From positions 13,545 to 77,544 of the forward strand of contig JBEKBT010000002.1 in NCBI GenBank assembly GCA_050015255.1: a DNA stretch of 64,000 bases. The letters are read 5' to 3'. Shown here one piece after another: positions 42,286 to 63,371 of this stretch (the first letter of the stretch is position 1; each line of letters begins with the position of its first letter). The stretch comes from Acidimicrobiales bacterium. GTDB taxonomy: Bacteria; Actinomycetota; Acidimicrobiia; Acidimicrobiales; Bog-793. The notes under the pieces are model-generated. The model was given only the letters and a program-made list of their open reading frames with translations, did not search any database and was not told the DNA's origin. The position numbers and the translations under genes were made by a program.

Positions 42286-43696
42286 GCTGGAGAACGTCGA
42301 GACGTTCAGGATCGTCAGCTTCGACTTCGACCCTGCGAAGAACACGGCCCGCTTCGACTACGCCTTCGACGACACCCACAGCTTTCGCGAGACCGTCGAG
42401 CTAGGTGGGCCGCCGCTCGGGTCGCGTTCGGGGAACGGCATCGAGCGCGCGCTGCGGCTCGTGCATCTTGCCGCCGGTGTCAGCTACTACAAGGCGGCGG
42501 CCCCGGAGAGGATCCTCGTCGAGACGGGGCCGCTCAGCCGGGCTGAGGCAGGGCTCGTCCACGACCTGTACGACAAGGGCCTGCGCGAGTTCGCGGTGGC
42601 CAACCAGCTGCAGGTGCCGGTTGATTTCGAGTTGAAAGTTGAGCAAGAGCGCGGACATCCGCCCGGCGGGGTGGCTGCCGGCGTGCCCACAGGGACTGGG
42701 GACGCCGCAGAGCAGGTTCGCGATGCCCCGCGACCTGGGATCGCGGTACCCATCGGCGGGGGGAAGGACTCGATCGTGCTGGTGGAAGCCCTGAAGGCCG
42801 CGGGCCCGCCGGAGGATGTCCCGACCTGGCTGGTGGCGATCAACAAGCGTCCCGCCATGGAGCGCATCGCTGATGTCGCAGGGTTGCCGTTCGCCTCCAT
42901 CACGCGAACCATCTCGCCCCGGTTGCTGGAGCTCAACTCGGCCGGGGCGCTGAACGGTCACGTGCCGATAACCGCCATCGTGTCGCTCATCGCCGTGGCG
43001 GCGGGGTACGTCTATGGCTATGACACGACGCTCATGGCGCTCGAGCGCTCGGCCGACGAGGCCACCGCGCTCATCGACGACGTTGCCGTCAACCACCAAT
43101 GGAGCAAGAGCACAGAGTGCGAGCTCGGGTTGCGCTCTGTCATCCGAGAATCGGTCTCCAGCTCGATCGAGTACGGCTCCGGGCTGCGCTCGTGCGGCGA
43201 GCTCGAGATCGCGAGGTGGTTCGCGGACCTGCCCGCCTACCACGCCGGTTTTCTCAGCTGCAATCAGGCTTACCGACCCGGCGCTCGTTTTGACGCTTGG
43301 TGCGGGCAGTGCCCGAAGTGCCGGTTCGTGTTCTTGGTGCTGGCGCCGTTTCTCGAGCCCGATCGCTTGGAGGCCATCTTCGGCCGCAACCTCTTGGACG
43401 ACCCCGAGCAAGTCGAGGGCTTCTGGGACCTGTGTGCCGCCGGGCGCAAGCCCTACGAGTGTGTCGGCGAGCAGCGCGAGTCGTTCCTCGCCTTCTTGCT
43501 CCTGCTCGAGCGCCCGAGTTGGCACGACCGCGCCGTCGTGGTGGCGCTCCGGCCCGAGCTCGAAGCCCGTCGTGGCCTCGTCTCCACCGATCTCGAGGGC
43601 GGTGTCCCGGTGATCGAGAGCGCATCGGCCACTCGCGAGCGCGTCGTGAGGCTGGTCACTCAGGCGCTCACCCGAGATCGCAGGCCAACCCGATGA
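42254..43696 (+). CDS. PP-loop (adenine-nucleotide alpha-hydrolase-like) protein, candidate MurL-type epimerase
   Basis: In frame within track ORF 41990..43696. ATG 42254 overlaps the MurD-like 3' end by 32 nt. GIAVPIGGGKDSIVLVEAL matches the SGGxDS PP-loop. C-terminal Cys motif WCGQCPKCRF. The functional assignment is inferential. Confidence 0.6.
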   Translation: MANGDVVTAPELENVETFRIVSFDFDPAKNTARFDYAFDDTHSFRETVELGGPPLGSRSGNGIERALRLVHLAAGVSYYKAAAPERILVETGPLSRAEAGLVHDLYDKGLREFAVANQLQVPVDFELKVEQERGHPPGGVAAGVPTGTGDAAEQVRDAPRPGIAVPIGGGKDSIVLVEALKAAGPPEDVPTWLVAINKRPAMERIADVAGLPFASITRTISPRLLELNSAGALNGHVPITAIVSLIAVAAGYVYGYDTTLMALERSADEATALIDDVAVNHQWSKSTECELGLRSVIRESVSSSIEYGSGLRSCGELEIARWFADLPAYHAGFLSCNQAYRPGARFDAWCGQCPKCRFVFLVLAPFLEPDRLEAIFGRNLLDDPEQVEGFWDLCAAGRKPYECVGEQRESFLAFLLLLERPSWHDRAVVVALRPELEARRGLVSTDLEGGVPVIESASATRERVVRLVTQALTRDRRPTR

Positions 43697-43820: not shown

Positions 43821-45881
43821 ATGATCCTCGAATCCATCAATTCACCCTCCGATCTCAAGGCCCTATCGCTTGCTGAGTGCGACCAGCTCGCGGGAGAGAT
43901 CCGCGACTTCATAGTGGAGACCGTCTCACGCACCGGTGGCCACCTCGGCTCCAACCTCGGTGTCGTCGAACTCACGCTCGCCCTGCACCGCGTCTTCAAC
44001 TCCCCTGATGACATCTTCCTGTTCGATACCGGGCACCAGGCTTACATTCACAAGCTCGTGACCGGCCGCCGTGACGCGTTCACCCAGCTCAAGCAGCAAG
44101 GTGGGCTTTCCGGGTACCCGTCGAGGGCCGAATCGCTTCATGACTGGGTCGAGAACTCCCATGCTTCCGCGGGGCTCAGCTACGCCCACGGCATCGCCAC
44201 GGCCCTTCGCCTCGAGGGCAGGACCGATCCCGAAGCCGGTGGTCGTTTCGTGGTCGCGGTGGTCGGCGACGGCGCTCTTACGGGCGGGATGGCATATGAG
44301 GCGCTCAACAACCTCGGCCATTCGGGCGCCCGGGTGCTCATCGTGCTGAACGACAACGGCAGGAGCTACGCACCGACGGTCTCGAAACTGTCGGTCTCGC
44401 TCACCCAACTGCGGCTCGACCCGCGCTATCTCCAGGTCCGTGAACGAGTCCGTCACTTGGTCGAGGACCTGCCGGGCGGCGTGTCCTCCCTCGCCTTCAC
44501 ATCGTTCCATGGGCTCAGCGCGGCCGTGCGCGAGGTCGTCGAGCCGCGCATGTTCTTCGAGGCGCTCGGCATCCGTTACACGGGACCCATCGACGGGCAC
44601 GACATCGGCGGGCTCGAGCAGTCCCTTCGCCGGGCCGCGAGCTGGAACGGCCCGATCGTGCTTCATGTCGTGACGACCAAGGGGAAGGGCTACGCCCCGG
44701 CAGAGGCCGACGACATCGCCTGCCTCCACGACATGAAGGCTTCGACCTCGCCGGTACCGGCGAGCCGCCCCGGCGGGCGCGGGCCGGCACGCCCCGGGTC
44801 TCTGGTGAGCGCTTCGACCGACGACGGCGGATTGCCAGGGCCACTTGGTGCCGGGGAGAGCTACTCGGAGGTCTTTTCCGCGGCGCTCGTGGATCTGGCG
44901 GCCAAGGACGAGCGCATCGTGGCGATCACGGCCGCCATGCCCGGCCCGACAGGGCTGCTGGCGTTCCAGGACCACTACCCTGAGCGTTTCGTAGACGTCG
45001 GGATCGCCGAGCAGCACGCCCTCACGGCGGCGGCGGGGATGGCGATGAGCGGCTTGCGCCCCGTCGTGGCGATCTATTCGACGTTCCTCGCCAGAGCGGT
45101 GGACCAGTGGAACCTCGACGTCGGCCTTCACAACCTGCCGGTCGTGATCTGTGCCGGCCGGGCTGGGGTCACCGGGGATGACGGGCCGAGCCACCACGGT
45201 ATCTACGATCTCGTGCAAGCGCTCCAGATACCGGGCTGCGCGATCTTCTGCCCCGCTGAGACCGCGGAGATAGCCCCGATGCTTGCCGAAGCCTTGAAGC
45301 TCCCCGGGCCATCGTTGATCCGGTACCCGAAGACTCCCTCGCCGGGTCCGCTCGCCAAGCCGGGGACCGGTCTCAAGGCGCGCCGGTTGAGAACCGGGAC
45401 CGGAGAGGTCGTCCTCGTTGGCATCGGCAAGATGACCCGCGCGGTGCTGGTCGCGGCGGCGGAGCTCTTCAGCGACGGCATCGAGACCGACGTCTTCGAC
45501 GCCCGGGTCATCCGCCCTGCCGACCCCGAGCTGCTGGAGGCGATCGCGCGCTCGAGGCTGGTGGTGACCGCCGAGGACGGGCTGGCACATGGTGGCGCCG
45601 GCTCGTACCTGCTGCGCGAGGCCGACCGGCTGGCCGACGCCGGTGGGCTTCCCGGTCCCCGTCAGATGGTGCTCGGCGTCCCGACCGAATACTTTCAGCA
45701 CGCCAAGCCCGACGCGATCCTTTCCCGGCTCGGGCTGGACGGCGCCGGCATCGCGGACGCTACGCGAAGAGCGCTTGCGAGGCGCCGCCGGATCGAACGG
45801 GCGCAACAGGCCGAGCAACTGGATCGCCCCGAACAGCAAGGCCTTGCCGGGCAACGGCACCCGCCCGGTCAGAACCGCTGA
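43821..45881 (+). CDS. dxs: 1-deoxy-D-xylulose-5-phosphate synthase
   Basis: 686 aa. MILESINSPSDLKALS, TGGHLGSNLGVVELTLALHRVF, FDTGHQAYIHKLVTGR, GDGALTGGMAYEALN, IAEQHA. Has a Pro/Gly/Ser-rich linker insertion and a basic C-terminal tail. Confidence 0.95.
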   Translation: MILESINSPSDLKALSLAECDQLAGEIRDFIVETVSRTGGHLGSNLGVVELTLALHRVFNSPDDIFLFDTGHQAYIHKLVTGRRDAFTQLKQQGGLSGYPSRAESLHDWVENSHASAGLSYAHGIATALRLEGRTDPEAGGRFVVAVVGDGALTGGMAYEALNNLGHSGARVLIVLNDNGRSYAPTVSKLSVSLTQLRLDPRYLQVRERVRHLVEDLPGGVSSLAFTSFHGLSAAVREVVEPRMFFEALGIRYTGPIDGHDIGGLEQSLRRAASWNGPIVLHVVTTKGKGYAPAEADDIACLHDMKASTSPVPASRPGGRGPARPGSLVSASTDDGGLPGPLGAGESYSEVFSAALVDLAAKDERIVAITAAMPGPTGLLAFQDHYPERFVDVGIAEQHALTAAAGMAMSGLRPVVAIYSTFLARAVDQWNLDVGLHNLPVVICAGRAGVTGDDGPSHHGIYDLVQALQIPGCAIFCPAETAEIAPMLAEALKLPGPSLIRYPKTPSPGPLAKPGTGLKARRLRTGTGEVVLVGIGKMTRAVLVAAAELFSDGIETDVFDARVIRPADPELLEAIARSRLVVTAEDGLAHGGAGSYLLREADRLADAGGLPGPRQMVLGVPTEYFQHAKPDAILSRLGLDGAGIADATRRALARRRRIERAQQAEQLDRPEQQGLAGQRHPPGQNR

Positions 45882-46777: not shown

Positions 46778-47680
46778 TCACCCGAGAGCGTGAGAGACGG
46801 GGTCGACCGCGCAGGCCTCGGCGACGTCCTCCGCACAGGGCTCGCATTCCATCTCCAGAGTCGTGTGGGCGACGTGGAAGCGTTCTGCGAGTGAGCTTTT
46901 CACCCGCTCCCCGATGACTTGTGCCTCTTCGAGGGTCGGATGCCCATCGAGCACGACGTGGGCCGAGAGCGCCCTGAAGTCGCTCGAGAGGCTCCAGCAG
47001 TGGAGGTCGTGGACGGCGGTCACTCCCGGGACGGCCGAGACGGCCGAAGCGAGGGCTGCCACGTCGAGGTCGGGTGGGGTCGACTCGAGCAGCACGTCCA
47101 GGCTCGCCCGAACGAGCCGCCAGGCCTCGGCGCCGATGAGCAGCGTGATGAGCAGTGCCACGGCCGGGTCGATCGCCTCGAAACGTCCCGTCGTGAGGAT
47201 CACCGTCCCCGCCACGACCACGCCGAGGGCGGCACCGGCATCACCGGTGAAATGCAGGGCCACGGCCCGGAAGTTGAGGTCGCGCGTGTGCTCTCGCAGA
47301 ACAAGGGCCGCGCCCGCGTTGCCGACGAGGCCGGCGGCGGCGAAGATCACCACGAGCCCGCCTTGGGTGTGGGCCGGGTGGGCGAGCCGGTAGGCAGCAA
47401 GCACGACCACGCCGAGGCCTACGAGAACGATCGCAGTCGCGTTCGCGAGCGCAGCGATGATCGTCGCCCGGTGGTACCCGAACGACCGCGCCGCTGTCGC
47501 AGGTCTGAGGGCGAGCCGGGTGGCGACGAGGGCGAGCCCCAGGGCGGCGGCATCTGCCAGGTCGTGGCCCGCGGTCGCCACGAGACCGGTCGAATGGGCG
47601 AACGCCCCTCCGGCGACCTCGACTGCCACCAGGACAAGGTCGACGATGAGAGCCAGCACAAGCCGGCGCGATCGCGACAT
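46778..47680 (-). CDS. cation diffusion facilitator family transporter
   Basis: Track ORF 46778..47761; likely start is ATG 47680 (MSRSRRLVLALIVDLVLVAVEVAGG...). HDLADAAALGLALVA, FGYHRATIIAALANA, and a C-terminal domain with VHDLHCWSL. Confidence 0.9.
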   Translation of the reverse strand: MSRSRRLVLALIVDLVLVAVEVAGGAFAHSTGLVATAGHDLADAAALGLALVATRLALRPATAARSFGYHRATIIAALANATAIVLVGLGVVVLAAYRLAHPAHTQGGLVVIFAAAGLVGNAGAALVLREHTRDLNFRAVALHFTGDAGAALGVVVAGTVILTTGRFEAIDPAVALLITLLIGAEAWRLVRASLDVLLESTPPDLDVAALASAVSAVPGVTAVHDLHCWSLSSDFRALSAHVVLDGHPTLEEAQVIGERVKSSLAERFHVAHTTLEMECEPCAEDVAEACAVDPVSHALG

Positions 47681-47688
47681 CGGACGGC

Positions 47689-48528
47689 TCAGCCGGTCGG
47701 CCCCTCGGCGATGAGCGAGCGGACGAGCGGTAGGTCGTCCGGGTGGGTGAGCCCGATGCAACGGCTGTTCGAGGGGACGACTCGGATACGGGCCCGCCCT
47801 TCAGCCACGGCCTTGCCGACGACCTCGGGCAGGAGGAGCTCGGGCGGCTTGCCCTCCTCGTGTGGGGCGGTGTCGGGATCGAACGCGTCGAGCCCGTCAT
47901 CGATCTCATCGAGCATCGATTCCGAGAAACCCCAGAGGTTCATGCTCACTTGCTCTTCCCCGCTCATGTGCTGCGTGCTTCCGGCGCCCCCCGCGATCGG
48001 GGAGCCTTCGAAGGTCCCGTCACCAAGGCGCCGCACCTTTCTTTCCACGATGCGATTCAGGTAGTCGTCGGCCTCGATCTGACAAAGCCCACGGGTGACG
48101 GTGTCGTCGGTGATGACCGTGTCCTTGAGGTGGTAGCCGACGAGTACGTGCTCGCCCGGGTTGCCCTTGCGGAGCTGATCTGCGAGCGTCGCCATCGCCT
48201 GCTTGCCGTAGAGGTCGTCCGCGTTGGCGACGCCGAAGGGCCCGTCGACGAAGGGCCGGGCGGACTCCACCGCTTGCGCGGTGCCTGCGATCGGTCCTTG
48301 GACGACAGGCACGACGGGCAGATCGGCCGGCCAGGAGGACCTTACATGGCTGAGCAGCTCGTCTTGGATCTCCTCGCGTACGATGAGGATGACGCCGTCG
48401 AAACCGGCGGCGAGGGCGTCGCGGGCCGTGTAGTCCATGAGCGTCTCGCCCTCCGGCCCGACAGGGACGAGCTGTTTCAGACCGCCGAAGCGGCGACCGA
48501 AGCCTGCTGCGAGCACGACGAGCTGCAT
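47689..48528 (-). CDS. sugar-phosphate nucleotidyltransferase family protein
   Basis: 279 aa. MQLVVLAAGFGRRFGGLKQL (the G-x-G-t-R-x NTP-transferase loop). The substrate cannot be called. Confidence 0.8.
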   Translation of the reverse strand: MQLVVLAAGFGRRFGGLKQLVPVGPEGETLMDYTARDALAAGFDGVILIVREEIQDELLSHVRSSWPADLPVVPVVQGPIAGTAQAVESARPFVDGPFGVANADDLYGKQAMATLADQLRKGNPGEHVLVGYHLKDTVITDDTVTRGLCQIEADDYLNRIVERKVRRLGDGTFEGSPIAGGAGSTQHMSGEEQVSMNLWGFSESMLDEIDDGLDAFDPDTAPHEEGKPPELLLPEVVGKAVAEGRARIRVVPSNSRCIGLTHPDDLPLVRSLIAEGPTG

Positions 48529-50161: not shown

Positions 50162-51073
50162 TTAGGGTCCTGACGCGTGCCTCGGTGACACGGCGAAGTA
50201 GTCCTCCGTCCCTGTGACGTCGAACCCGCAGCTCAGATAGAGGCCGAGGGCGCTGTCGTTGGTGCACGAGACTTCGAGCCCCACCCTGGTCAGGCCTTCG
50301 GCGACGAGGTCCCGGGAGAGACCTGACAGCACCTGTCGGCCGATCCCGCGGCCCTGGAACTGCGGCGAGACCGCGAACCCGTAGATGTCTGCCGCGTCGT
50401 CGCTGCGTTCGACACGAACCGTCCCGACCAGCTCGTCTGAACGCTCGATGACGAGGGTCCCCGGGAAATGCTCGACGAGCGCCTCTATGTCGTCGGTCTT
50501 CAGTTGCTCGACGGGGAGGCCGAAGGCCTCCCCCAGGCATGCGACGACGAAGGCGACGTCGCCCCGCTCGGCCTGGCGCACCTTGACGAGCGGGTCGGGA
50601 ACGAAAGCGGCAGGTTCGCGCCGCAGCACCATGCGGTGCTCGGAATGCTCGAGCTCACCCCCGACCGACTGGGCAAAGGCTGTCCCGGCTGCGTAGAGCC
50701 GGTCCACGACCAAGAGTGCCTGCGGCGCGCCCCGGTTGTCCACCTCGGCGATCGCGGCCTCGAACAGCCGGGAGAAGACGCCCTGGCGACGGTGGGCGGG
50801 ATGGACCATCCCGCAGATCTCGAGCTGGTCCGACCGGAAGCCGTAGAGGCCGAGAAAACCGACGAGGCCACCGGGCCCGACCCACAAGAAGTCGTTGACC
50901 TGTTCGGGCGGTCTTGTCTGAAGGGTTCGTCGCTCGAGCTTGAGACGCCCACCGTCCGCTGCGATGCAGGTCGAGGCAAGCTTGTCGATCTCGCGAAGAT
51001 GCTCCGGCGAGAGCCCCGGCTCCGCCAGGAGCTGCCCTGGAGGCTTTCTTCGCTCGTCGCCGGGGGGAGCCAC
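50162..51073 (-). CDS. tandem-GNAT N-acetyltransferase (MshD-like architecture)
   Basis: 303 aa. Two acetyl-CoA motifs: HPAHRRQGVFSRLFEAA and VSPQFQGRGIGRQVLSGL. The identity as mycothiol synthase is not established. Confidence 0.8.
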   Translation of the reverse strand: MAPPGDERRKPPGQLLAEPGLSPEHLREIDKLASTCIAADGGRLKLERRTLQTRPPEQVNDFLWVGPGGLVGFLGLYGFRSDQLEICGMVHPAHRRQGVFSRLFEAAIAEVDNRGAPQALLVVDRLYAAGTAFAQSVGGELEHSEHRMVLRREPAAFVPDPLVKVRQAERGDVAFVVACLGEAFGLPVEQLKTDDIEALVEHFPGTLVIERSDELVGTVRVERSDDAADIYGFAVSPQFQGRGIGRQVLSGLSRDLVAEGLTRVGLEVSCTNDSALGLYLSCGFDVTGTEDYFAVSPRHASGP

Positions 51074-51145: not shown

Positions 51146-52882
51146 TCAATGAGCCGTGCCGAGCTGCACCGCCTTGACGATGAGCAGGAGCACGGCCGCG
51201 ACCAGGTAGAGGCGGAGGATCCACATCGCCGAGGTGCGCCCACGCGACCAGACGGGTCGCTCGAGGAGGGCGAGCGGTGGCATCCGCCAGGTCTCGCGCC
51301 GTACAGGGTGCTGGGAGGCAGCGGCCGCGGCAAGGCGGGCGGTGGCCTGGCGACGAGCGCGCTGGGCCGGCAGGACCGACCAGAATCCCACACCCAAGAA
51401 CCCTGCCGCGATGATGGCACCCAGGACCAGGGCGAACGTGACGACCTGAAGACTCGGGAAGACCGTCGTCGCCATCAGTATCAGAGAAAGGGCCAGCAGC
51501 ACGGCCACGATGAAGCCGGCCAGCACGTTCAGCCACGGGCGGTTGACCCAGGGCCCGAGGACTTCCTTGTCGTTGCAGAGCAAGAGCAAGAACACCGTCG
51601 CACTGGGCAGAAGCACCCCCGCCAGAGCTTGCACCGAAGTCGTGATCAGCCCCAACGGCGCCCGCGGTATCAGCACGATTGCCGCCGCGCAGATCACCAG
51701 CGAGCTGAACAGGATGTAGAACTGCTTCGCCTCGGCGAAGCTTCGGTGGAGAGAATGGTGGAGCCCGAACACGTCACCGAAGGCGTACGAGGTGGACAAG
51801 GTCACGGCGGCGGCTCCGATTATCGAGGCGTTGAGCAGCACGAGCGCGAACAGCGGCCCCGTGCCGTGCCCGACGACGTGCTCGAGAGCGCGGGCGACCT
51901 GCTCCGCGTTCACGAAGTGACCGGCGAAGGCGGTGCCCCGGAAGGCGAAGGCCGGGGTGACGACGAGCGCCGTGGCCGCGATCACTACGACGAGGGAGCC
52001 GATGACGGTGTCGGCACGCTCGTAGTTGATCCAGCGAGGCGTGATCCGCTTGTCGACGATGTTGGACTGCTGGAAGAAAAGCTGCCAGGGCGCCACTGTC
52101 GTTCCGACGATGGCGATGATCAGGAGCACAGCCGTCGACGACATACCGCCCTGGGCGCCCGGTACCAGGAAGCCGTGCAGTACAGGGCCGGCGTGGGGGT
52201 GGACCAGGATCACGAGCGGGATCACGAGGAAGTTCATCGCCACGAAGATGAACATGAAGCGTTCCCAGCGGCGGAAGCTGCCCGAGGCGGTTATGGCGAT
52301 CAGGCCGATCGCTGCGATCGGGACCGAGATGTAGGGGGAGATGCCGAAGTAGCCGAGGGCGAGGCCCACGCCGATGAACTCGGTGACGATCGTGAGGAAG
52401 TTCAAGATGAACAGGTCGCCGACGGAGAATGCCCCCCAGAACTTTCCGAATCGCTCGTTGATCAGCCTGGCATGGCCGACGCCTGTCACCGCTCCGAGGC
52501 GCACGACCATCTCCTGGTTGACGATGAGGACAGGGATGAGCAGGGGCAGGGTCCACAGCAGGCTGAGGCCGAAGTTCTGCCCGGCCTGGGCGTATGTGGA
52601 GACGCCCCCGGCGTCGTTGTCGCCCACCATCACGATGAGGCCCGGCCCGATGATGGCGAGCAGCGTGAGGAGCTTTTTCCCCCAGGACCGCCGGGCAGCG
52701 AGGTCGTGCTCGCGGATCGTTCCGAAAGCCCCCTGGATGTCGCCCACGTGCGCGCTGTCGAGGACGGCGCTGGGCGCGTCGAAGTGTCCTTCGGGCTCGG
52801 TTTCGTCGCCGAGGAGGGTGTCGTTCACCTCCTCCTCGTCGCCTGGAAGCAGCTTTTCGACCATGGTGACCTCTCGCGCCAT
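51146..52882 (-). CDS. Nramp/SLC11 family transporter with NRMT-type (Mg2+-like) site substitutions and extra C-terminal helices
   Basis: Track ORF 51146..52930; start is ATG 52882 or 52864. LLAIIGPGLIVMVGDNDAGGVSTYAQAG (TM1), IVNQEMVVRLG, IVGTTVAPWQLFFQQS (TM6). The canonical DPGN and AxxMPH motifs are replaced. Confidence 0.85.
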   Translation of the reverse strand: MAREVTMVEKLLPGDEEEVNDTLLGDETEPEGHFDAPSAVLDSAHVGDIQGAFGTIREHDLAARRSWGKKLLTLLAIIGPGLIVMVGDNDAGGVSTYAQAGQNFGLSLLWTLPLLIPVLIVNQEMVVRLGAVTGVGHARLINERFGKFWGAFSVGDLFILNFLTIVTEFIGVGLALGYFGISPYISVPIAAIGLIAITASGSFRRWERFMFIFVAMNFLVIPLVILVHPHAGPVLHGFLVPGAQGGMSSTAVLLIIAIVGTTVAPWQLFFQQSNIVDKRITPRWINYERADTVIGSLVVVIAATALVVTPAFAFRGTAFAGHFVNAEQVARALEHVVGHGTGPLFALVLLNASIIGAAAVTLSTSYAFGDVFGLHHSLHRSFAEAKQFYILFSSLVICAAAIVLIPRAPLGLITTSVQALAGVLLPSATVFLLLLCNDKEVLGPWVNRPWLNVLAGFIVAVLLALSLILMATTVFPSLQVVTFALVLGAIIAAGFLGVGFWSVLPAQRARRQATARLAAAAASQHPVRRETWRMPPLALLERPVWSRGRTSAMWILRLYLVAAVLLLIVKAVQLGTAH

Positions 52883-53228
52883 CGTTGGCGTAGTGGGTGT
52901 GCGTGGGCGTGATTGGTTGCGCACGCACACCAGAGGTCAAGCAGGCCTCAGCGGAGCAGTCGCTCCTCCTTGGTTGCGCACACGTGAAGTTGGTCCGGTA
53001 ACCAACCGTCGGTACTCAGGGTTGCTCCGTTTCCTGACCCATCGTCAACCTGCCTTTGAGCGAGTGGCGCCGGCGGGTACCGGCTTCAGCCCGGCGATGA
53101 CACCGGGTACACTGCGCCCACCGTCTCCGGAGAAGGCGTGGCTGCTTGCGGGCACAATCCTAGCCGTCTGAGCTCACTTCCGGTCCACTTGCCGGAGGTA
53201 TCCCGGCCCAGCGGGCGAGCCGGCGCTC
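52883..53228 (-). promoter_or_regulatory. long structured 5' leader / intercistronic region upstream of the Nramp homolog (candidate riboswitch)
   Basis: 346 nt without a convincing ORF between two same-strand genes. Perfect 10-bp stem GGUGUGCGUG/CACGCACACC (52896-52931). Duplicated 12-mer GUGCGCAACCAA (52913-52924, 52970-52981). GGAGC-GACU-GCUCC hairpin next to AAGGAGG. Confidence 0.35.
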
Positions 53229-54515
53229 TTACTCGTCGGAGGTGGTCATCCCGAAGTCGCGTCGCCACCCAGTCGGCAGGAGAAGCTCGAGCACGTCGTC
53301 GACGGTGACGACACCGATCATGTGGTGCTCATCGTCGATGACGGGCGCGGCGGCGAGGTTGAAGTCCGACATTCTCCGGACGATGGAGTGCAGGTCGGCG
53401 TCGGGTCTCACCGCCTGAGGGTCGAGGTCGGCCACGTCACCGATGCGCGCCCCCGACGGGCTCTTCAGGAGACGGACGACCGAGGCCGTGCCGGTGAGCC
53501 GGCCCTCCTCGTCCGTGGTGTAGATGACTCCGAGCGCCTCGGGTGCCACCGGGCTTCGGCGGATCTCCTCGAGCGCGTCCGAGACGATGGTGTCGCCGTG
53601 CAGGGAGAGGAATTCGGGGCTCATGAGCCCGCCCGCGGTCTCGGGGTTGTAGCTGAGCAGGGCCCGGACCTTGACCTGGTCCGGCTGGGGCAACGCCTCG
53701 AGGACCGCGAGCCGGCGGTCCTGCTCGAGGTCGGCGATCAGGTCGGCTGCATCGTCTGGTGCCATCGTCGCCAGCAGCCGGGCCGCTTCCTTGTCCGAGC
53801 GCGTGCTCAAGAACTCGAGCTGATGGCCCGTGTCCAGCTCCTCGAAGACGTCCGCCTCGAGCTCGAGGTCCTGACCGACGGCATTGATGATCTCCTCGCC
53901 CTCCTCGTGCGAGGCCGCCTCGACGAGGTCGGCGATCTGGGCGGGGTGGAGGCGGGCGAGCTTGCGGTAGGGGATGCGGAGCATGGCCGTCGGCACGTGG
54001 GCGACGAACGGCTGGATGCTCTCCCAGTCCACGATGGCCTTGGCCGGTATGCGCTTGGCGAGCATGCGCGGGAGCAGCCTGCGCAGGACCGGCCGACTCG
54101 ACGGGTCGACTCCGATGACTTCCAGGGTGCCGTCGACGGCGGCCAGCTCGATCTCGTTCGCCCGGATGAGCCGTGCGCCGACGATGTTGATCAGATGCCT
54201 CGCCGACAGGTCCCTTGCCAAGAGCAGCTCGCCCGGTCGCCGCTCGAAACGGGCCAGATTGAGGGTCTCGCCCTGGAGCTGGACGGAGCCGGGGCTGACG
54301 GTCCCGATGAGCGACATCGGCACGAAGAGCTGCCGGCGGCCGATCGTCGCGACGATCCCGCTCACGGGGGGATGTGCCTGTTCGCCAGGACGCGCGATCA
54401 GGTCCTCGACCCGGCCGATGCGTTCCCCGTCGCCACCGAGCAGCGGGCTGCGGACGATGTCGGAAAGGTGGATGATGTCGGTTGCCATCAGGAGGAGGCC
54501 CAGCGCGATCGGCAC
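53229..54515 (-). CDS. soluble MgtE-N domain + CBS-pair protein with PRC-barrel-like N-terminus (no membrane domain)
   Basis: 428 aa. N-terminal IHLSDIVRSPLLGGDGERIGRVEDLI (PRC-like), an MgtE_N-like helical region (LARLHPAQIADLVEAASHEEGEEIINAV...AARLLATMAPDDAADLIADL), a CBS pair (...IGVVTVDDVLELL), then a stop. No TM helices. Confidence 0.85.
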   Translation of the reverse strand: MPIALGLLLMATDIIHLSDIVRSPLLGGDGERIGRVEDLIARPGEQAHPPVSGIVATIGRRQLFVPMSLIGTVSPGSVQLQGETLNLARFERRPGELLLARDLSARHLINIVGARLIRANEIELAAVDGTLEVIGVDPSSRPVLRRLLPRMLAKRIPAKAIVDWESIQPFVAHVPTAMLRIPYRKLARLHPAQIADLVEAASHEEGEEIINAVGQDLELEADVFEELDTGHQLEFLSTRSDKEAARLLATMAPDDAADLIADLEQDRRLAVLEALPQPDQVKVRALLSYNPETAGGLMSPEFLSLHGDTIVSDALEEIRRSPVAPEALGVIYTTDEEGRLTGTASVVRLLKSPSGARIGDVADLDPQAVRPDADLHSIVRRMSDFNLAAAPVIDDEHHMIGVVTVDDVLELLLPTGWRRDFGMTTSDE

Positions 54516-54633
54516 GCGGCGATCCGCACGGCTCCATAGTAGTGAGAACTTCGCCGGGCTGGAAGGGTTCCGGCGCTCGTCGAGGCGGGCGACCGCTTGC
54601 TTATGGGAGCGGTGCGGGAGAGGCTAGACGGCT

Positions 54634-55893
54634 ATGCCAGAGCCGTACCGGCCCCGCTGCCTGCGAATTGCGTACCTCGTCTACAGAGGCAATCCGCGCT
54701 GTGGCGGCCAGGGTGTCTACACGCGTCATCTGACGCGCGAGCTCACGGCGCTCGGGCACTCGGTGACGGTGTTCTCCGGGCCGCCCTATCCCGAGCTCGA
54801 GGAGCCGGTGGAGCTGGTCAAGGTCGCGAGCCTGGACCTTTACCGGGAGCCGGACCCGTTTCGTGTCCCGAAACTGCGCGAGTTCACCTCTCCGACCGAC
54901 GTCCTCGAGTTCGCGCTCATGTGCACGGCAGGCTTTCCCGAGCCGCTCACCTTCAGCCTGCGGGCGCGCCGCTTGCTCGCCGGGCGCCGCTCGGATTTCG
55001 ACCTCGTCCACGACAATCAGAGCCTCGGGCGGGGTGTCGCCGGCATGATGAAAGACGGCTGGCCGGTGCTCGCCACGATCCATCATCCCATCACTGTCGA
55101 TCGCGAGCTCGACCTCGCTCACGCGGACCGATGGCAGCGGCGCCTGACACTGCGGCGCTGGTACGGCTTTGTCGGGATGCAGGCGCGGGTGGCGCGCAAG
55201 ATCCAGCGCGTGGTGACCGTCTCCGAGTCGTCGCGGCGCGACATCGCCGATCAGCTCGGCGTCGAGCTCGAGCGCATTGCCGTCGTCCCCGTCGGCGTCG
55301 ACAGCTCGGTCTTCCGGCCGATGCCGGCTGTCGCGCGGGTGCCGGGCAGGATCATGACGACGGCGAGCTCCGACGTGCCGATGAAAGGGCTCGTCCCGCT
55401 TCTAGAGGCGCTCGCGAAGGTGCGCGCCGAGCGCGAGGACGCCCATCTGGTGGTCGTGGGACGGCTGCGAGACGGCAGCACGATCCCTGCCGCGCTGGAC
55501 CGGCTCGGCCTGGCGCGGGCGGTCCGTTTCGTCTCCGGGCTGAGCGACCAGGAGATCGTCGATCTCTACGCCGAGGCGGAGCTCGCCGTCGTGCCGTCGC
55601 TCTACGAAGGCTTCTCTCTGCCGGCGATCGAGGCGATGGCTTGCGGCGTGCCGCTCATCGCCACCACCGGCGGCGCCCTGCCCGAGGTGGCGGGCCCGAG
55701 CGGCGTGTCGGCGCTGCTCGTGCCACCCGACGATCCGGACGCGCTCGCCCGGGCGATCGGGGCGGTCCTCTCGGACGAGGTGCTCCGCCATCGCCTCGGC
55801 GACGCCGGCCGCAGGCGCGTCGCCGAGCGCTTCACCTGGCCGGTGACCGCCCGGGCCACCGCAGAGCAGTACCTCGAGCTTCTGGCGTGCTGA
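54634..55893 (+). CDS. glycosyltransferase family 4 protein
   Basis: 419 aa. RIAYLVYRGNPRCGGQGVYTRHLTRELTALGHSVTVFSG, and a C-terminal GT-B E-x7-E region (VVPSLYEGFSLPAIEAMACGVPLIAT). Confidence 0.9.
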   Translation: MPEPYRPRCLRIAYLVYRGNPRCGGQGVYTRHLTRELTALGHSVTVFSGPPYPELEEPVELVKVASLDLYREPDPFRVPKLREFTSPTDVLEFALMCTAGFPEPLTFSLRARRLLAGRRSDFDLVHDNQSLGRGVAGMMKDGWPVLATIHHPITVDRELDLAHADRWQRRLTLRRWYGFVGMQARVARKIQRVVTVSESSRRDIADQLGVELERIAVVPVGVDSSVFRPMPAVARVPGRIMTTASSDVPMKGLVPLLEALAKVRAEREDAHLVVVGRLRDGSTIPAALDRLGLARAVRFVSGLSDQEIVDLYAEAELAVVPSLYEGFSLPAIEAMACGVPLIATTGGALPEVAGPSGVSALLVPPDDPDALARAIGAVLSDEVLRHRLGDAGRRRVAERFTWPVTARATAEQYLELLAC

Positions 55894-56603
55894 CTGTCGC
55901 CTTCGGCCGTCTCGGCCTGCGCCCGGGCGAGCGCGTCCTCGACCTGGGCTGTGGCGCGGGCCGGCACGCTTGTGAGTGCCTGCGTCGCGGGGCGCTCGTC
56001 GTCGCCCTCGATTCCGACTCGGTCGAGGTCAAAGGCGTCACCGGGTTGATGGCAGCGATGATCGCGGCCGGAGAGGTTCCCGAGAGCGGGGCGGGGGTGG
56101 CGGTGAGAGGTGACGCGCTGGGGCTGCCGTTTCCTGACGGGGCTTTCGACAAGGTCATCTGTGCCGAGGTGCTCGAGCACCTGCCCGACGACTCCTCGGC
56201 CATGGCCGAGCTCGCCCGGGTGCTTCGTCCCGGAGGCCTGCTCGCCATCAGCGTGCCCCGCTACGGGCCCGAGCTCGTCAACTGGGCGCTCTCGGAGCGC
56301 TATCACACCGTCCCGGGCGGTCATGTGCGTATCTACCGGCGCCGCCAGCTGCTCGAGCGGTTCGACAAGGCAGGTCTGGAGCTCGTCGCGACCCATCACG
56401 CGCACGCCCTGCACAGCCCTTACTGGTGGCTGCGCTGCCTCGTGGGAGTGGACAACGACCGCTGCCTGGCCGTGCGCAGCTACCACCGTCTCCTGGTGTG
56501 GGACATAACGGCTCAGACGCCGCTGACGCGTGTCCCCGAGAAGATCCTCAACCCCTTGTTGGGCAAGAGCCTCGTCGTCTACCTGGTGCGCGCAGAGCGA
56601 TGA
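55887..56603 (+). CDS. class I SAM-dependent methyltransferase
   Basis: In frame within track ORF 54597..56603. GTG 55887 overlaps the GT4 stop. ERVLDLGCGAGRHA (motif I), VVALDSD, FDKVICAEVLEHL, LRPGGLLAISVP. Confidence 0.85.
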   Translation: MLTVAFGRLGLRPGERVLDLGCGAGRHACECLRRGALVVALDSDSVEVKGVTGLMAAMIAAGEVPESGAGVAVRGDALGLPFPDGAFDKVICAEVLEHLPDDSSAMAELARVLRPGGLLAISVPRYGPELVNWALSERYHTVPGGHVRIYRRRQLLERFDKAGLELVATHHAHALHSPYWWLRCLVGVDNDRCLAVRSYHRLLVWDITAQTPLTRVPEKILNPLLGKSLVVYLVRAER

Positions 56604-57775
56604 TGACGCCCCTCCGTCAGGTCGCCGGCGACCCGATCGCCAGGGCGCCGATCGCCGGGACGCCGATCGCCAGGGCGCCGATCGGCGACACGATCGAGTG
56701 GATCCGCGCCGTCCAGTTGAGAAACGGCATGATCCCGTGGTTTGCCGGTGGCCACGCCGACCCGTGGAACCACGTCGAGGCGGCCATGGCGCTCAGCGTG
56801 GGGGGTGCGGTGCGCGAGGCCGAGCGCGCCTTCGAGTGGCTGCAGGCGACCCAGCGCGCCGACGGGGCGTGGCACACCTACTACCTGGCGAGCGGCCAGG
56901 TCGAAGAGCCCCGCCTGGACACCAACGTCTCTGCCTACGTGGCGACGGGTGTGTGGCACCACTTCCTCGTCACGGGTGACTCCGGTTTCCTGGAGGATCT
57001 CTGGGAGCCGGTCGAGCGGGCCATGGGCTTTGTGATCGGCTGGCAGCGCCCTGGCGGGGAGCTGGTGTGGTCGGTCGAGCCTGACGGGACGCCGGGGAGC
57101 TACGGGCTGCTGACAGGCTCCGCCTCGGCGTACTTCAGCCTCCGGTGCGCCATCGCCTGCGCCTTGCAGCTCGGCCTCGAGCGCCCGGAGTGGGAGCTTG
57201 CCGCCGGCCGCCTGCGCCACGCCGTCGCCCACGGCTCGGGCGGGTTCGCGCCCAAGGACGAGTTCGCGATGGACTGGTACTACCCGGCGCTGGTGGGAGC
57301 CCTCGAGCCCGAGACGGCCGCAGGCCGCATCGACGAGCGGTGGTCCGACTTCGTGATCGGCGGGCGAGGGGTGCGCTGTGTCTCGCACCGCCCCTGGGTG
57401 ACCGCGGCGGAGACGGCCGAGTGCGCCATCGCCCTGGCGTCGATCGGGCGGCGCGACGAGGCGGTGGACCTGCTCGGTTGGGCACGCCAGCACCGCCTCC
57501 CGGACGGTTCTTACGTCACCGGCATGGTCTACCCGCAAGGCTCGAGCTATCCCCCGGGGGAGCGCTCGAGCTATACGGCAGCGGCGATCGTCCTCGCCGA
57601 GGACGCCTTGTCCGGGCTGAGCCCGGCCGCTCAGCTGTTCGTCGACGGGTCGCTTCCCCGGGGCCTCGATCTCGATCCGACCGACGCCCCCACCTCCCGC
57701 CTGAGCACTCGCAGGCTTCCTATGCCGGCCGAGGCTTCCTCCACGAACTCGCCCCCGCTGAGCGCGCGCTTGTAG
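56600..57775 (+). CDS. prenyltransferase / terpene-cyclase-fold (alpha/alpha toroid) protein
   Basis: In frame within track ORF 56426..57775. ATG 56600 overlaps the upstream stop (ATGA). QW-like repeats QLRNGMIPWF, QRADGAWHTYY, WQRPGGELVW, HRLPDGSYV. N-terminal PIARA/PIAGT pentapeptide repeats. Confidence 0.75.
   Translation: MMTPLRQVAGDPIARAPIAGTPIARAPIGDTIEWIRAVQLRNGMIPWFAGGHADPWNHVEAAMALSVGGAVREAERAFEWLQATQRADGAWHTYYLASGQVEEPRLDTNVSAYVATGVWHHFLVTGDSGFLEDLWEPVERAMGFVIGWQRPGGELVWSVEPDGTPGSYGLLTGSASAYFSLRCAIACALQLGLERPEWELAAGRLRHAVAHGSGGFAPKDEFAMDWYYPALVGALEPETAAGRIDERWSDFVIGGRGVRCVSHRPWVTAAETAECAIALASIGRRDEAVDLLGWARQHRLPDGSYVTGMVYPQGSSYPPGERSSYTAAAIVLAEDALSGLSPAAQLFVDGSLPRGLDLDPTDAPTSRLSTRRLPMPAEASSTNSPPLSARL
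56635..56694 (+). repeat. four tandem 15-nt units inside the prenyltransferase-fold gene (PIARA-PIAGT-PIARA-PIGDT)
   Basis: gatcgccagggcgcc / gatcgccgggacgcc / gatcgccagggcgcc / gatcggcgacacgat, read directly. Confidence 0.9.
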
Positions 57776-58353
57776 ATCTCAAAGGGGGGGCGCCCGCCGT
57801 CTCTGGGGTCAGGGAACACGTCGTGGATCGCAAGCCAGCCGCCCTCGGCGACGCGCGGGGCCCAGCCCCGGTAGTCAGCCCAGGCGGGCACTTCGCCGTG
57901 GCCTCCGTCGATGAACACCAAGCCTGCGGTGACGTTCCAGCGGGCGGCGATCGCCGGCGAGTCACCGACGACGGCGACCGCGAGGTCCTCCGCCCCGGCG
58001 GACTCGAGCGCCCTTCTCCAAAACGGCAGTGTGTCGATGCGGCCGGTCTCGCGGTCGAGGAGCGTTGCGTCATGATGCTCCCAGCCGGGCTGGTTCTCCT
58101 CGGAGCCGTGATGATGGTCGACGCTGAAGATCAGGGCCGGTGGCGCTCCGGCGTCCATCGCCTGGGCGGTCCCCGAGGCCAGGTACAGTGTCGACCGGCC
58201 GCAGTAGGCGCCGACCTCGACGATCGAGGAGAAACCAGCCATCACGGCGCGTCGGGCGACGGCGGCGAGGGCAAGGCCCTCCTCATCGGGCATGAAGCCC
58301 TTGGTGGCACGTGCCGCCGCCAGCAGCAGCTGTGGTCTCGACTGAGGGCTCAT
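57631..58353 (-). CDS. class I SAM-dependent methyltransferase (CmcI / O-methyltransferase-3-like)
   Basis: 240 aa. IVEVGAYCGRSTLYLA (motif I-like), LVFIDGGHG, WLAIHDVF. The 3' end overlaps the convergent gene by 145 nt. Confidence 0.8.
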   Translation of the reverse strand: MSPQSRPQLLLAAARATKGFMPDEEGLALAAVARRAVMAGFSSIVEVGAYCGRSTLYLASGTAQAMDAGAPPALIFSVDHHHGSEENQPGWEHHDATLLDRETGRIDTLPFWRRALESAGAEDLAVAVVGDSPAIAARWNVTAGLVFIDGGHGEVPAWADYRGWAPRVAEGGWLAIHDVFPDPRDGGRPPFEIYKRALSGGEFVEEASAGIGSLRVLRREVGASVGSRSRPRGSDPSTNS

Positions 58354-58389
58354 CGGCGCTCCATCCTCATCGGCCTCATCGCAGGTGGC

Positions 58390-58999
58390 TCAGCTCGTGG
58401 CGAGCGAGACGATCGTGTAGATGCCGAAGCCCAAAAGGGCCAGTCCCGACACCCGCCGTACGACAGTGAGAGGCACCCAGCGCGTGATCGTGCGGCCGGC
58501 GAGGACCCCTGCGACGGTGACCCAGCGCAAAACCAGCCGTCGCGCCCGCGAACACTGCTGCCCTGTCCCGATAGTGGGCGGCCAGGTTGGCTATCAGCAC
58601 CTGGGTGATGTCTCCGAACTCGGCGATCGCGACCACGCCGAATGTGACGGCGGCGACGCGCCAGAAGCTCGAGCCAGCGGCCAACGACCGGTCCTCCCCC
58701 GAGGCCAGCAGCTCGCCGCGCTCCTGCTCGGCATGTTCGGTCGTCGCCAGCAGGTAGACGGCACCTCCCAGGAACAGCGCCGTCACGACCGACTGCACCG
58801 CCGGCTTGGGAAGCAGGGCGATCAGCCCGCCGGCGACCACAACGATGCCGGCCTGGAGGACGAGCGCCGCCACGGCACCGCACCAGACCGGTACCGGGCG
58901 GTGACGCGAGGAGAGGACCAGGCACGCGACGAAAGTCTTGTCAGGCAGCTCCGCCGGTATGACGAGCGCGAACGTCGTCGCCGCCATGGCGAGGTTCAC
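58390..58999 (-). pseudogene. UPF0016 / GDT1 (TMEM165-like) cation transporter gene carrying a +1 frameshift
   Basis: Track ORF 58376..58999 has both E-x-G-D-(K/I)-T motifs (ELPDKT, EFGDIT) but ends in a non-membrane Arg/His tail. Shifting frame at the GGG run (58521-58523) restores ...ALVTVAGVLAGRTITRWVPLTVVRRVSGLALLGFGIYTIVSLATS* with a stop at 58390. Confidence 0.75.
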
Positions 59000-61649: not shown

Positions 61650-62735
61650 ATGGCTCTGCACCCGCTACGGTCAGGACTCGTGCCTGAGCCCGGATCGTCT
61701 CACGTTGCCTCGAATGGCTCGGGCGAGCCGCTCGGCAGTCGGACGGCCGAGGTTGTGTGCATAGGCCATGCCATCGTCGACCGGCTCGCGCACGTGGATG
61801 CAGCGACCGTTGCCGCATCGGGCGTCGAGCCGGAGTCGATGACCCTTGTCGACGGCGAGCAGATCGCGAGGATCCTCCAGCTCGTGCCTTCCTGGGTCCA
61901 AGTCGCCGGCGGATCGGCCGCCAACACTGCTGCCGGGCTCGCCTCTTTGGGAGACCATCCGACCTTTGTCGGCTCGGTGGGTGCCGACCCGCTCGGTGAG
62001 CGCTATGAGCGCGACCTCTCCGCGGTCGGCGTGCGCTGCGTGCTGAGCCACAGCGCCACCGGTCTGCCCACCGGCCAGTGCCTGGTGCTCGTCACCGAGG
62101 ACTCGGGCCGCACGATGGCGACGAACCTTGGCGCGGGCGTCGTGATCGACCCCGAGGCGGTCGAGCGGGTTGACATGGGCACCGCCGCCGGGTTGTACAT
62201 CGAGGGCTACCTGCTCGACTCGCCTGGGACCCTTGCTGCGCTGGAGCGGATGATCCAGCTGGCGAAGTCGGCCGGCGGGTTGGTGGCTCTGAGCCTGTCG
62301 GACCCATTTCTCGTCGAGCGCCACGGCGAAGCACTGAACGCGCTCGTCGATGACAAAGTGGACCTGCTCTTTGCCAACGAGGAGGAAGCACGGCGCTTCA
62401 CCGGGGCAGGCGACCTGTCCGGGGCACTCGAGGCTCTCGAACGGCCGGGTCTCGTGGTGGCGGTGACCCTCGGGCCTCGGGGCGCCGTGCTGGTGGACGG
62501 CAACGAGCGAGCCAGTGTCGCGGCCTGGTCGGTCGGCCCGGTGGACGACACGACCGGAGCTGGCGACATCTTCGCGGCCGGCGTCCTCCACGGCCTTGTG
62601 CACGGGGCGCCGCTCGAGGTCGCGGGCCGGCTCGGAGCCCTGGCGGCGGCCGAGATCGTCTCCCATCTCGGCGCCCAGCCCCGAGTCTCGCTGCGCTCGT
62701 TGGCAGCGCGAACCGGCCTTGCCGCGCCCTTCTAG
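61650..62735 (+). CDS. PfkB-family carbohydrate/adenosine kinase
   Basis: 361 aa ORF. VVCIGHAIVD, GGSAANTAAGLASLG, and the C-terminal DTTGAGDIFAAGVLHGL motif. The start is uncertain (ATG 61650, GTG 61680 or GTG 61755). Confidence 0.85.
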   Translation: MALHPLRSGLVPEPGSSHVASNGSGEPLGSRTAEVVCIGHAIVDRLAHVDAATVAASGVEPESMTLVDGEQIARILQLVPSWVQVAGGSAANTAAGLASLGDHPTFVGSVGADPLGERYERDLSAVGVRCVLSHSATGLPTGQCLVLVTEDSGRTMATNLGAGVVIDPEAVERVDMGTAAGLYIEGYLLDSPGTLAALERMIQLAKSAGGLVALSLSDPFLVERHGEALNALVDDKVDLLFANEEEARRFTGAGDLSGALEALERPGLVVAVTLGPRGAVLVDGNERASVAAWSVGPVDDTTGAGDIFAAGVLHGLVHGAPLEVAGRLGALAAAEIVSHLGAQPRVSLRSLAARTGLAAPF

Positions 62736-62769
62736 CCGGGCGCTTCGGACCAGCCGGGCTCTTCAGACC
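62734..62769. repeat. 18-nt imperfect tandem duplication bridging two convergent stop codons
   Basis: agccgggcgcttcggacc (62734-62751) and agccgggctcttcagacc (62752-62769), 16/18 identical. The kinase stop TAG is at 62733-62735. The complement of the minus-gene stop is at 62763-62765, inside copy 2. Confidence 0.9.
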
Positions 62770-63371
62770 TGGTCGCTGTCCTCGTCCGGCGGGAGGAAGG
62801 CCAGGTCGAGATCTGCCAGGCGCACGAGTGCGGAGGCGACCCAGCGGGCGAGGCCCGCGACCTGACCGTCGAGCTTCGTCGGATCGTCCAGAACAGGCTC
62901 CTCGAGCCGGATGCTGCCCTGGTAGGCGATCTCGATGGCGCAGGCGGGAGTCGCCGAGGAAGGCTCGTAGAGCTGCTCGATCATCGGCCCGGACTGCTCC
63001 AAGCGCTCCGAGCCGAACTCGGGTCCCTCACCTGCAAGCGCGGAGAGCACAAGGGCCGGGTCGGGCACCGCGGCGAGACGCTGCACGCGAAGCGCGATCT
63101 CGACGACGAGCTCCGGCGGTTCGGCGGGAGGCTCGCCGATCGACCACGACCGGTAGGCGCTCTGGCTCCAGGTCGGCCAATCCAGGCTGAGGTCTGCCCT
63201 GACTCGCGGGGGGCTGTCCTCTCCAGGGAGGCTGTAGGAGGTCTCGAAGGCGACGTCGCCGAGGAAGACGTCAACCTGGAAGCGCTCCTCGACCGCTTGC
63301 TGTTCCAGCAGCGCGCCCTCGAACGCCTCGCGGAGGGCCGCGATGACGTCGAGGAGAATGTGATCGATCAT
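62763..63371 (-). CDS. hypothetical acidic protein
   Basis: 202 aa ORF in a coherent frame with G/C-rich third positions. No family recognised. Confidence 0.55.
   Translation of the reverse strand: MIDHILLDVIAALREAFEGALLEQQAVEERFQVDVFLGDVAFETSYSLPGEDSPPRVRADLSLDWPTWSQSAYRSWSIGEPPAEPPELVVEIALRVQRLAAVPDPALVLSALAGEGPEFGSERLEQSGPMIEQLYEPSSATPACAIEIAYQGSIRLEEPVLDDPTKLDGQVAGLARWVASALVRLADLDLAFLPPDEDSDQV

Follow-up and report, generated by a model that had tools for sequence, protein, structure and literature searches.

A probable methylmannose polysaccharide gene cluster in an uncultured Acidimicrobiales bacterium from peat

Mycobacteria make and recycle a cytoplasmic 3-O-methylmannose polysaccharide (MMP) using the products of a four-gene cluster: the alpha-(1->4)-mannosyltransferase ManT, the putative 3-O-methyltransferase pMeT3, the endo-alpha-(1->4)-mannosidase MmpH, and the 1-O-methyltransferase MeT1 (Maranha et al. 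Commun Biol 2023, PMC9883506). In Mycobacterium hassiacum these are encoded by MHAS_04402 (ManT), MHAS_04403 (pMeT3), MHAS_04404 (MmpH), and MHAS_04405 (MeT1), with a counterpart in M. avium at MAV_2755-2758 (PMC9883506). A role in binding long-chain fatty acids and acyl-CoAs has been proposed for mycobacterial MMP, which has also been linked to growth in the cold. The MeT1 paper of Ripoll-Rozada et al. (PNAS 2019) is reportedly part of the biochemical work on the MMP cluster of nontuberculous mycobacteria. Here, we describe a four-gene locus in a 64,000-nucleotide (nt) stretch of an Acidimicrobiales genome (contig JBEKBT010000002.1 of assembly GCA_050015255.1, forward-strand positions 13,545 to 77,544; hereafter, the window). 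We consider it likely that this locus is a cluster for MMP biosynthesis and recycling, arranged as manT-meT3-mmpH with a convergent meT1 and carried on the core chromosome of an uncultured peat member of the Acidimicrobiales. The orthology of all four proteins, the conservation of their catalytic residues, the operon architecture, and the co-conservation of the genes are observed directly in the sequences compared here.

By sequence comparison, crystal structures from the M. hassiacum MMP cluster are matched by three of the window's four products. In phmmer searches against the PDB, the window ManT aligned with 7QSG (E 1e-128, residues 7-415) and the window MmpH with 7QSJ (E 3.8e-98, residues 29-359, 49% identity), which are the ManT and MmpH structures of M. 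hassiacum (Maranha et al. 2023, PMC9883506). The window MeT1 matched 6G7D, 6G80, and 6H40 at E 1.1e-56 over residues 10-223 (214 residues). We take 6G7D to be the MeT1 structure on the grounds of gene position and homology: in Mycolicibacterium, the gene that occupies the MeT1 position aligns with 6G7D at E 8e-118, which ties this structure to the MeT1 position of the MMP cluster. For MeT3, the nearest solved structures include two whose names denote methyltransferases of sugars or secondary metabolites, 3BUS and 6UV6 ‘D-glucose O-methyltransferase’, and the protein is an orthologue of the mycobacterial candidate MMP 3-O-methyltransferase. Compared with a Mycolicibacterium locus obtained through a mycobacterial MmpH homologue (L081), the window proteins are 52.6% identical for ManT (405 aa, E 5e-132), 53.2% for MeT3 (233 of 238 aa, E 3e-93), 48.9% for MmpH (327 aa, E 6e-102), and 50.2% for MeT1 (209 aa, E 1e-63).

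An earlier model-made reading of this DNA, based on its letters and reading frames (hereafter, the original prediction), had assigned the first product to glycosyltransferase family 4 (GT4) and two others to methyltransferase families, and Pfam agrees on all three. ManT carries Glyco_transf_4 and Glycos_transf_1 (GT4), MeT3 matches Methyltransf_11/23/25 (class I S-adenosylmethionine (SAM) methyltransferases), and MeT1 matches Methyltransf_24. The mmpH product has SQHop_cyclase_N as its sole Pfam match, and this is sub-threshold (21.2 bits against a cut-off of 26.2, E 1.8e-4), with no individual stretch reaching significance by itself. NCBIfam searches with the four proteins returned no equivalog above threshold, only generic GT4 and methyltransferase matches and a partial ‘oligosaccharide amylase’ match for MmpH, and NCBIfam therefore holds no model for these families. 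The original prediction also held that no characterized pathway combines the four activities, but the mycobacterial MMP cluster combines exactly these (PMC9883506). Because both the toroid protein, now identified as the MmpH orthologue, and the glycosyltransferase match that characterized pathway, the claim of novelty fails. Two of its hedges, that the cluster might build a cytoplasmic methyl-polysaccharide-type product and that the toroid protein might be a hydrolase-like (alpha/alpha)6 enzyme, proved right, given the match to the MMP cluster and to the endo-alpha-mannosidase MmpH, respectively. The locus is thus explained by published biochemistry and represents no new class of system; it is a known pathway in a class from which MMP had not previously been reported.

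Most of the residues singled out in the mycobacterial enzymes are kept in these alignments. Every ManT functional residue named in PMC9883506 is conserved in the window protein (7QSG alignment, M. hassiacum residue first: G15=G24, H142=H150, K240=K251, L291/D293=L303/D305, E313-G-F-x-L=E325..L329, and E321=E333). In M. hassiacum ManT, G15 belongs to the glycine loop, L291 and D293 recognize guanine, and E313-G-F-x-L recognizes the mannosyl group; the K240A and E321A mutants are inactive, and Mg2+ raises the in vitro activity of the enzyme about five-fold (PMC9883506). Eight of the eleven MmpH pocket residues named in the same study are likewise conserved: D47=D54, W49=W56, N101=N109, T163=T172, M215=M224, Y219=Y228, E262=E271 (the catalytic base), and E265=E274. 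Among the homologues compared, the catalytic glutamates E271 and E274 are invariant, and the acid candidate D54 (D47) is nearly so.

The predicted fold of MmpH points the same way. The AlphaFold2 model has a mean predicted local distance difference test (pLDDT) score of 88.6, with values under 50 confined to residues 1-15 and 364-391; the means of successive 10-residue blocks over residues 1-30 are 42, 48, and 73. A Foldseek search of this model against the PDB ranked 7QSJ first (E 1e-33, target-normalized template-modelling (TM) score, TMt, 0.93, TMq 0.82-0.83, root-mean-square deviation 0.9-1.0 Å, 330 columns). The next matches, at E ~1e-7 to 1e-8, are (alpha/alpha)6 carbohydrate-active enzymes (rhamnosidases, cellobiose phosphorylases, AGE-type epimerases, and GH63), and terpene cyclases come no higher than ranks 31 and 43 (TMq 0.49-0.55). 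A regular-expression search of the 391-aa protein found no DxDD or DDxxD motif. The QW-like motifs QRADGAW, WQRPGGELVW, and HRLPDGSY, to which the original prediction had drawn attention, are present at residues 85, 148, and 298.

The genes of the locus overlap one another (Table 1). The sequence bears out the four open reading frames (ORFs), both start/stop junctions, and the convergent overlap that the original prediction had described. Start/stop overlaps this tight are in keeping with co-translation of manT, meT3, and mmpH. The start of mmpH is backed by N-terminal alignment to two homologues (P0011 and P0025), and an in-frame tandem repeat lies just inside its 5' part, with a period of 15/30 nt (Tandem Repeats Finder: period 30 x 2.1 copies, 94% matches). 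This repeat looks like a recent slippage insertion, since alignment shows it to be missing from the closest homologues, the same P0011 and P0025, and since it is sited in the low-confidence N-terminus of MmpH. At the other end of the gene, the limits of homology show that the C-terminal tail of each protein lies antisense to the end of the folded domain of its partner, with homology to 7QSJ stopping at MmpH residue 359 (nt 57676) and homology to 6G7D at MeT1 residue 223 (nt 57685). The length of this mmpH/meT1 overlap seems to defeat gene callers.

Table 1. Coordinates, within the window, of the cluster and of neighboring features discussed in the text.
Feature	Position	Strand	Size	Description
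manT	54634-55893	+	419 aa	GT4 (GT-B), GDP-mannose-dependent alpha-(1->4)-mannosyltransferase orthologue
meT3	55887-56603	+	238 aa, GTG start	class I SAM methyltransferase, putative MMP 3-O-methyltransferase (pMeT3) orthologue
mmpH	56600-57775	+	391 aa	(alpha/alpha)6-barrel MMP endo-alpha-(1->4)-mannosidase orthologue
meT1	57631-58353	-	240 aa	Methyltransf_24-type, orthologue of the reducing-end-capping MMP 1-O-methyltransferase
manT/meT3 start/stop overlap	55887-55893	+	7 nt	GTGCTGA, context gcGTGCTGAct
meT3/mmpH start/stop overlap	56600-56603	+	4 nt	ATGA, context cgATGAtg
mmpH/meT1 3'-end overlap	57631-57775	convergent	145 nt	
In-frame tandem repeat in 5' part of mmpH	56622-56684	+		encodes PIARAPIAGTPIARAPIG
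CDF efflux gene	46778-47761			divalent-cation gene
NRAMP gene	51146-52930			divalent-cation gene
MgtE_N+CBS(+PRC-barrel) gene	53229-54515			divalent-cation gene, soluble product
GDT1-family gene	58376-58999			divalent-cation gene
DXP synthase gene	43821-45881	+		MEP isoprenoid pathway
NTP_transferase gene	47689-48528			rejected as cluster member
GNAT gene	50162-51073			rejected as cluster member
PfkB kinase gene	61650-62735			rejected as cluster member
ORF	41990-43696	+	568 aa	no Pfam match at E<=1e-5
ORF	62763-63371	-	202 aa	no Pfam match at E<=1e-5

None of the four cluster proteins has a transmembrane segment by Kyte-Doolittle hydropathy, the maximum 19-residue mean being 1.23-1.54, compared with 2.49 and 2.90 for the neighboring GDT1 and NRAMP proteins. 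The original prediction had seen neither a signal peptide nor a transmembrane helix in any product; this measure upholds the part concerning helices and a cytoplasmic location. Rfam returned zero matches over the entire window at gathering thresholds, and therefore no riboswitch or leader 5' of manT. A promoter and terminator consensus scan of 54300-58700 found nothing, this being a weak test in an actinobacterium of ~70% GC.

The arrangement recurs widely. When homologues were sought with each species represented by a single genome, at least 600 stretches matched, and the best 80 loci were analyzed. The core manT-meT3-mmpH is present, collinear, and on a single strand in all 61 loci with sufficient upstream flank (61/61). 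A convergent meT1 lies downstream in 62 of the 80, so that the co-conservation by which the original prediction had proposed to check itself is borne out; in these 62 loci meT1 overlaps mmpH (13), lies 0-300 nt away (27), or lies more than 300 nt away (22). In three further loci meT1 is upstream on the same strand, and the remaining 15 have none in the available flank, six of these ending within 1.3 kb of mmpH. The junctions are also shared, with a 7-nt RTGYTRA overlap of manT and meT3, in frame, in 25 of 73 loci and a 4-nt NTGA overlap of meT3 and mmpH, in frame with mmpH, in 42 of 78. Because it recurs in 80 related loci, the four-gene arrangement is more than chance. Spacing between mmpH and meT1 is mostly -4 to +100 nt, and an overlap as long as 145 nt is found elsewhere among the 80 loci only in the nearest locus (L001); a 4-nt convergent overlap occurs in Mycolicibacterium and six Acidimicrobiia loci. 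Large negative values in L072 and L009 are probably due to frameshifted assemblies, and that in L012 (-169) possibly so.

Nearly all of the best 80 loci come from metagenome-assembled genomes (MAGs) labelled Acidimicrobiia or Acidimicrobiales, or given no more than a higher actinobacterial rank. Among the labels are Microthrix, Ilumatobacteraceae, Iamiaceae, Aquihabitans, Ca. Aldehydirespiratoraceae, and Ca. Poriferisocius, together with one Acidobacteriota and one ‘uncultured bacterium’. The closest MmpH homologues are metagenomic, and those with a name are called ‘Acidimicrobiales bacterium’. The nearest locus, from Acidimicrobiales bacterium isolate SPRUCE 405 (L001), is 75-86% identical across the four proteins, and its synteny with the window extends to the NRAMP, MgtE_N/CBS, GDT1, and aminopeptidase N genes on the flanks. 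An MmpH sequence identical to that of the window was found on contigs of four JGI metagenomes. On these contigs (L083-L086) meT1 is called on L083 alone and is uncalled on L084, L085, and L086. The Acidobacteriota label belongs to a MAG contig (L003, JAGWSF010000005.1) whose cluster is 58-64% identical to the window proteins, with a same-strand meT1 upstream; either mis-binning of the contig or a genuine transfer may account for it.

The available comparisons argue for an old, largely vertical inheritance of the MMP cluster, since the sequence identities track class-level phylogeny: Mycolicibacterium and Nonomuraea proteins are 56-61% identical to each other, and the window proteins are 46-55% identical to either. 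A recent horizontal transfer was considered and rejected, because the cluster has a GC content (0.70-0.71) like that of the window, its flanks are core genes, and the identities follow the class-level branching. Elsewhere, the window codes for core functions, including SMC, FtsY, Ffh, RimM, TrmD, PlsX, RecG, PEPCK, and Dxs.

From orthology to the characterized mycobacterial system, we infer the enzymatic activities and the product in the Acidimicrobiales host. ManT would add mannose from GDP-mannose to alpha-(1->4)-oligomannoside primers with a minimum length of 3-4 units (the mycobacterial enzyme accepts such oligomannosides from three units upward), and MeT3, as a putative methyltransferase, would place a methyl group from SAM on the 3-OH of the added mannoses. 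MeT1 would methylate the free 1-OH at the reducing end. MmpH would then cut the mature 11-14-mer MMP internally, yielding a 1-O-methyl-capped 4-5-mer and an uncapped 7-8-mer, and these fragments would serve as primers for new chains, such that one parental chain seeds two daughters (‘partially conservative replication’). The product would be a soluble, cytoplasmic, polymethylated polysaccharide.

Several points weigh against assigning the MMP pathway to this locus. We found no report of MMP isolated from Acidimicrobiia, and none of the papers searched links methylmannose with this group. The main text of PMC9883506 is silent on Acidimicrobiia, although its supplementary ConSurf alignment does list homologues from them. 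The activity of MeT3 is only putative even in mycobacteria (PMC9883506). Moreover, nine related loci whose downstream flank runs to 1.7 kb or more have no nearby meT1, and three of the eleven MmpH subsite residues are altered in the window protein (D50->N57, F102->V110, and W315->Y325). The role proposed for the polysaccharide in mycobacteria, the buffering of products of fatty acid synthase I (FAS-I), may have no counterpart in the window organism.

The altered residues bear on the alternative that survives best, namely that the homologous cluster makes a variant polymethylated mannan differing in chain length, cleavage register, acylation, or methylation pattern, with the changed MmpH subsites reflecting that variant. 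In the top hits of two MmpH homologue searches, one Acidimicrobiia-type and one mycobacterial, the three positions are fixed or nearly fixed by clade: position D50 is N in 117 of 117 Acidimicrobiia-type and D in 120 of 120 mycobacterial sequences, position F102 is V in 116 of 119 and F in 120 of 120, and position W315 is Y in 119 of 119 and W in 120 of 120. The MmpH of Nonomuraea gerenzanensis has N/H/Y at these positions, and the D/F/W state is thus confined to mycobacteria among the sequences compared. A variant product would also accord with the acetylated MMP of Streptomyces griseus, reported to be made with a homologous cluster, and with an identity of only ~50% to the characterized enzymes. 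Yet the catalytic base, D47, eight of the eleven pocket residues, and all ManT donor-site residues are kept, and the cluster shows no consistent insertion of a further tailoring gene (for an acyltransferase, for example); the GNAT gene of the window is 3.5 kb off, past two transporter-related genes. We therefore regard a variant mannan as possible but rather unlikely.

The same substitutions speak to the mechanism of MmpH itself. D47 and D50 are the two candidates for its catalytic acid, and the D50A and D47A mutants of the M. hassiacum enzyme have ~29% and ~34% of activity left, respectively (PMC9883506 and its source data). Asparagine fixed at position 50 in the Acidimicrobiia-type sequences, along with a nearly invariant D47, favors D47 rather than D50 in this catalytic role. 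In effect, the clade-fixed changes D50N, F102V, and W315Y form a natural mutagenesis experiment that bears on the choice between D47 and D50.

That the locus is instead a salvage module, degrading methylmannans from other soil actinobacteria rather than synthesizing them, appears very improbable. MmpH is a hydrolase, and mycobacteria also occur in peat, where this organism lives. However, a cytoplasmic location is predicted for all four proteins, the conserved block includes no transporter or binding protein, and three of the four genes are biosynthetic (a glycosyltransferase and two methyltransferases), with translational coupling to the hydrolase. Least credible of all is the system that the original prediction had favored, an uncharacterized isoprenoid glycosylation and methylation pathway with the toroid protein as prenyltransferase or terpene cyclase: the sub-threshold SQHop_cyclase_N match, the QW-like motifs, the ‘prenyltransferase’ names at NCBI, and the terpene cyclases among the lower fold ranks are outweighed by 49% identity and a near-perfect structural fit to a biochemically characterized endomannosidase, by TM-scores of ~0.5 for terpene cyclases against 0.93 (target-normalized) for MmpH, by the absence of DxDD and DDxxD, and by invariant glycosidase glutamates, and nothing points to an isoprenoid substrate.

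The naming of this protein family deserves comment. NCBI names for members of the MmpH family (P0051, P0078, P0081, P0109, and P0121-P0237) are ‘prenyltransferase’ and ‘prenyltransferase/squalene oxidase repeat-containing protein’. A few are instead named ‘glycosyl hydrolase family 95 catalytic domain-containing’ or ‘oligosaccharide amylase’, and JGI names some mycobacterial homologues ‘MMP endo-(1,4)-3-O-methyl-alpha-D-mannosidase’. We flag this as a systematic misannotation, the NCBI ‘prenyltransferase’ being set against a characterized MMP endo-alpha-mannosidase.

Reading the locus as an MMP cluster gives the pathway a considerable reach, with the intact, coupled cluster found in Nonomuraea and in a minimum of 80 MAGs at species level, almost all of these bearing Acidimicrobiia or higher actinobacterial labels. 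A pathway studied as a mycobacterial trait is thereby extended to a deep-branching actinobacterial class, where one can ask whether MMP function is tied to lipid metabolism of the mycobacterial type. Acidimicrobiia are not known to make mycolic acids and perhaps lack FAS-I. We hypothesize, with confidence evenly balanced between yes and no, that MMP-type polysaccharides are an old vertical trait widespread in uncultured Acidimicrobiia of peat, soil, freshwater, marine, and sponge habitats, and not a specialty of mycobacteria and Streptomyces. If so, the core function of MMP would be decoupled from mycobacterial FAS-I regulation in favor of a general lipid-chaperone or cold-adaptation role, and the N/V/Y pocket of MmpH could define a distinct cleavage specificity or product.

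In addition to the cluster, the window holds several divalent-cation genes around it (Table 1), among them one for an MgtE_N+CBS(+PRC-barrel) protein that is without the MgtE membrane domain. NRAMP, MgtE_N, and GDT1 homologues adjoin the cluster in the Acidimicrobiia loci L001, L006, L024, and L050, and more distant homologues, in another orientation, adjoin it in L004, L007, L010, L025, and L040. A functional link between these genes and the MMP cluster would be speculative, the Mg2+ stimulation of ManT notwithstanding. The NTP_transferase, GNAT, and PfkB kinase genes were considered and rejected as cluster members, their matches being generic and their linkage inconsistent. The DXP synthase gene, of the 2-C-methyl-D-erythritol 4-phosphate (MEP) isoprenoid pathway, lies ~9 kb upstream; it is the sole nearby isoprenoid-pathway gene and is unrelated to the cluster. 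The two ORFs without a Pfam match have high GC at third codon positions, and the shorter is also called as a Pfam-less gene on matching metagenome contigs (L083, 16164-16772).

Among enzymes that share its fold, MmpH has the alpha/alpha-barrel and the QW-like G-x-W turns in common with squalene-hopene cyclase, class II terpene synthases, and the protein prenyltransferase beta subunit. It differs from them in its lack of DxDD and DDxxD motifs, its sub-threshold Pfam match, and a TMq of 0.49-0.55 to terpene cyclases against 0.82-0.83 to 7QSJ. GH15 glucoamylases and glucodextranases and the GH125 exo-alpha-1,6-mannosidases (clan GH-L) are ~10-15% identical in sequence, with a partly conserved -1 subsite; unlike these, MmpH is an endo-enzyme for 3-O-methylated alpha-(1->4)-mannan. 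The window MmpH also scores far under the cut-off of TIGR01577 (56 bits against 820.7).

Of the other actinobacterial systems, the S. griseus cluster, reported with an acetylated MMP, is homologous (cited in PMC9883506). In the Streptosporangiales, Nonomuraea gerenzanensis carries a manT-meT3-mmpH...meT1 cluster (L087) whose proteins are 46-55% identical to those of the window and whose MmpH agrees with the window MmpH in having N at the D50 position and Y at the W315 position. Unlike the overlapping arrangement in the window, ~1.1 kb separates mmpH from meT1 in Nonomuraea and holds a 335-aa ORF (6187-7194). This cluster is unannotated at the 10.96 Mb region of NZ_LT559118.1, an 11.85-Mb record with 10 annotated features that is filed as ‘plasmid I’; given its size, it is probably the chromosome.

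The closest correspondence is with the mycobacterial cluster. Gene order equals that of M. hassiacum MHAS_04402-04405, and both order and orientations equal those of the Mycolicibacterium locus L081, where manT (4054-5289, +), meT3 (5283-6008, +), and mmpH (6001-7065, +) are likewise met by a convergent meT1 (7062-7766, -). The 7-nt overlap of manT and meT3 is common to both, as ATGCTGA in Mycolicibacterium and GTGCTGA in the window. The convergent overlap of mmpH and meT1 is 145 nt in the window and 4 nt in Mycolicibacterium, because the window MmpH and MeT1 both bear additional C-terminal tails, and the window MmpH further differs from the mycobacterial system in its N-terminal tandem-repeat insertion. 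The host, too, is different, being a member of the Acidimicrobiales (class Acidimicrobiia) rather than of the Mycobacteriales. As in the mycobacterial cluster, all four proteins are soluble, and the catalytic and donor residues of ManT, together with the fold and catalytic base of MmpH, are kept.

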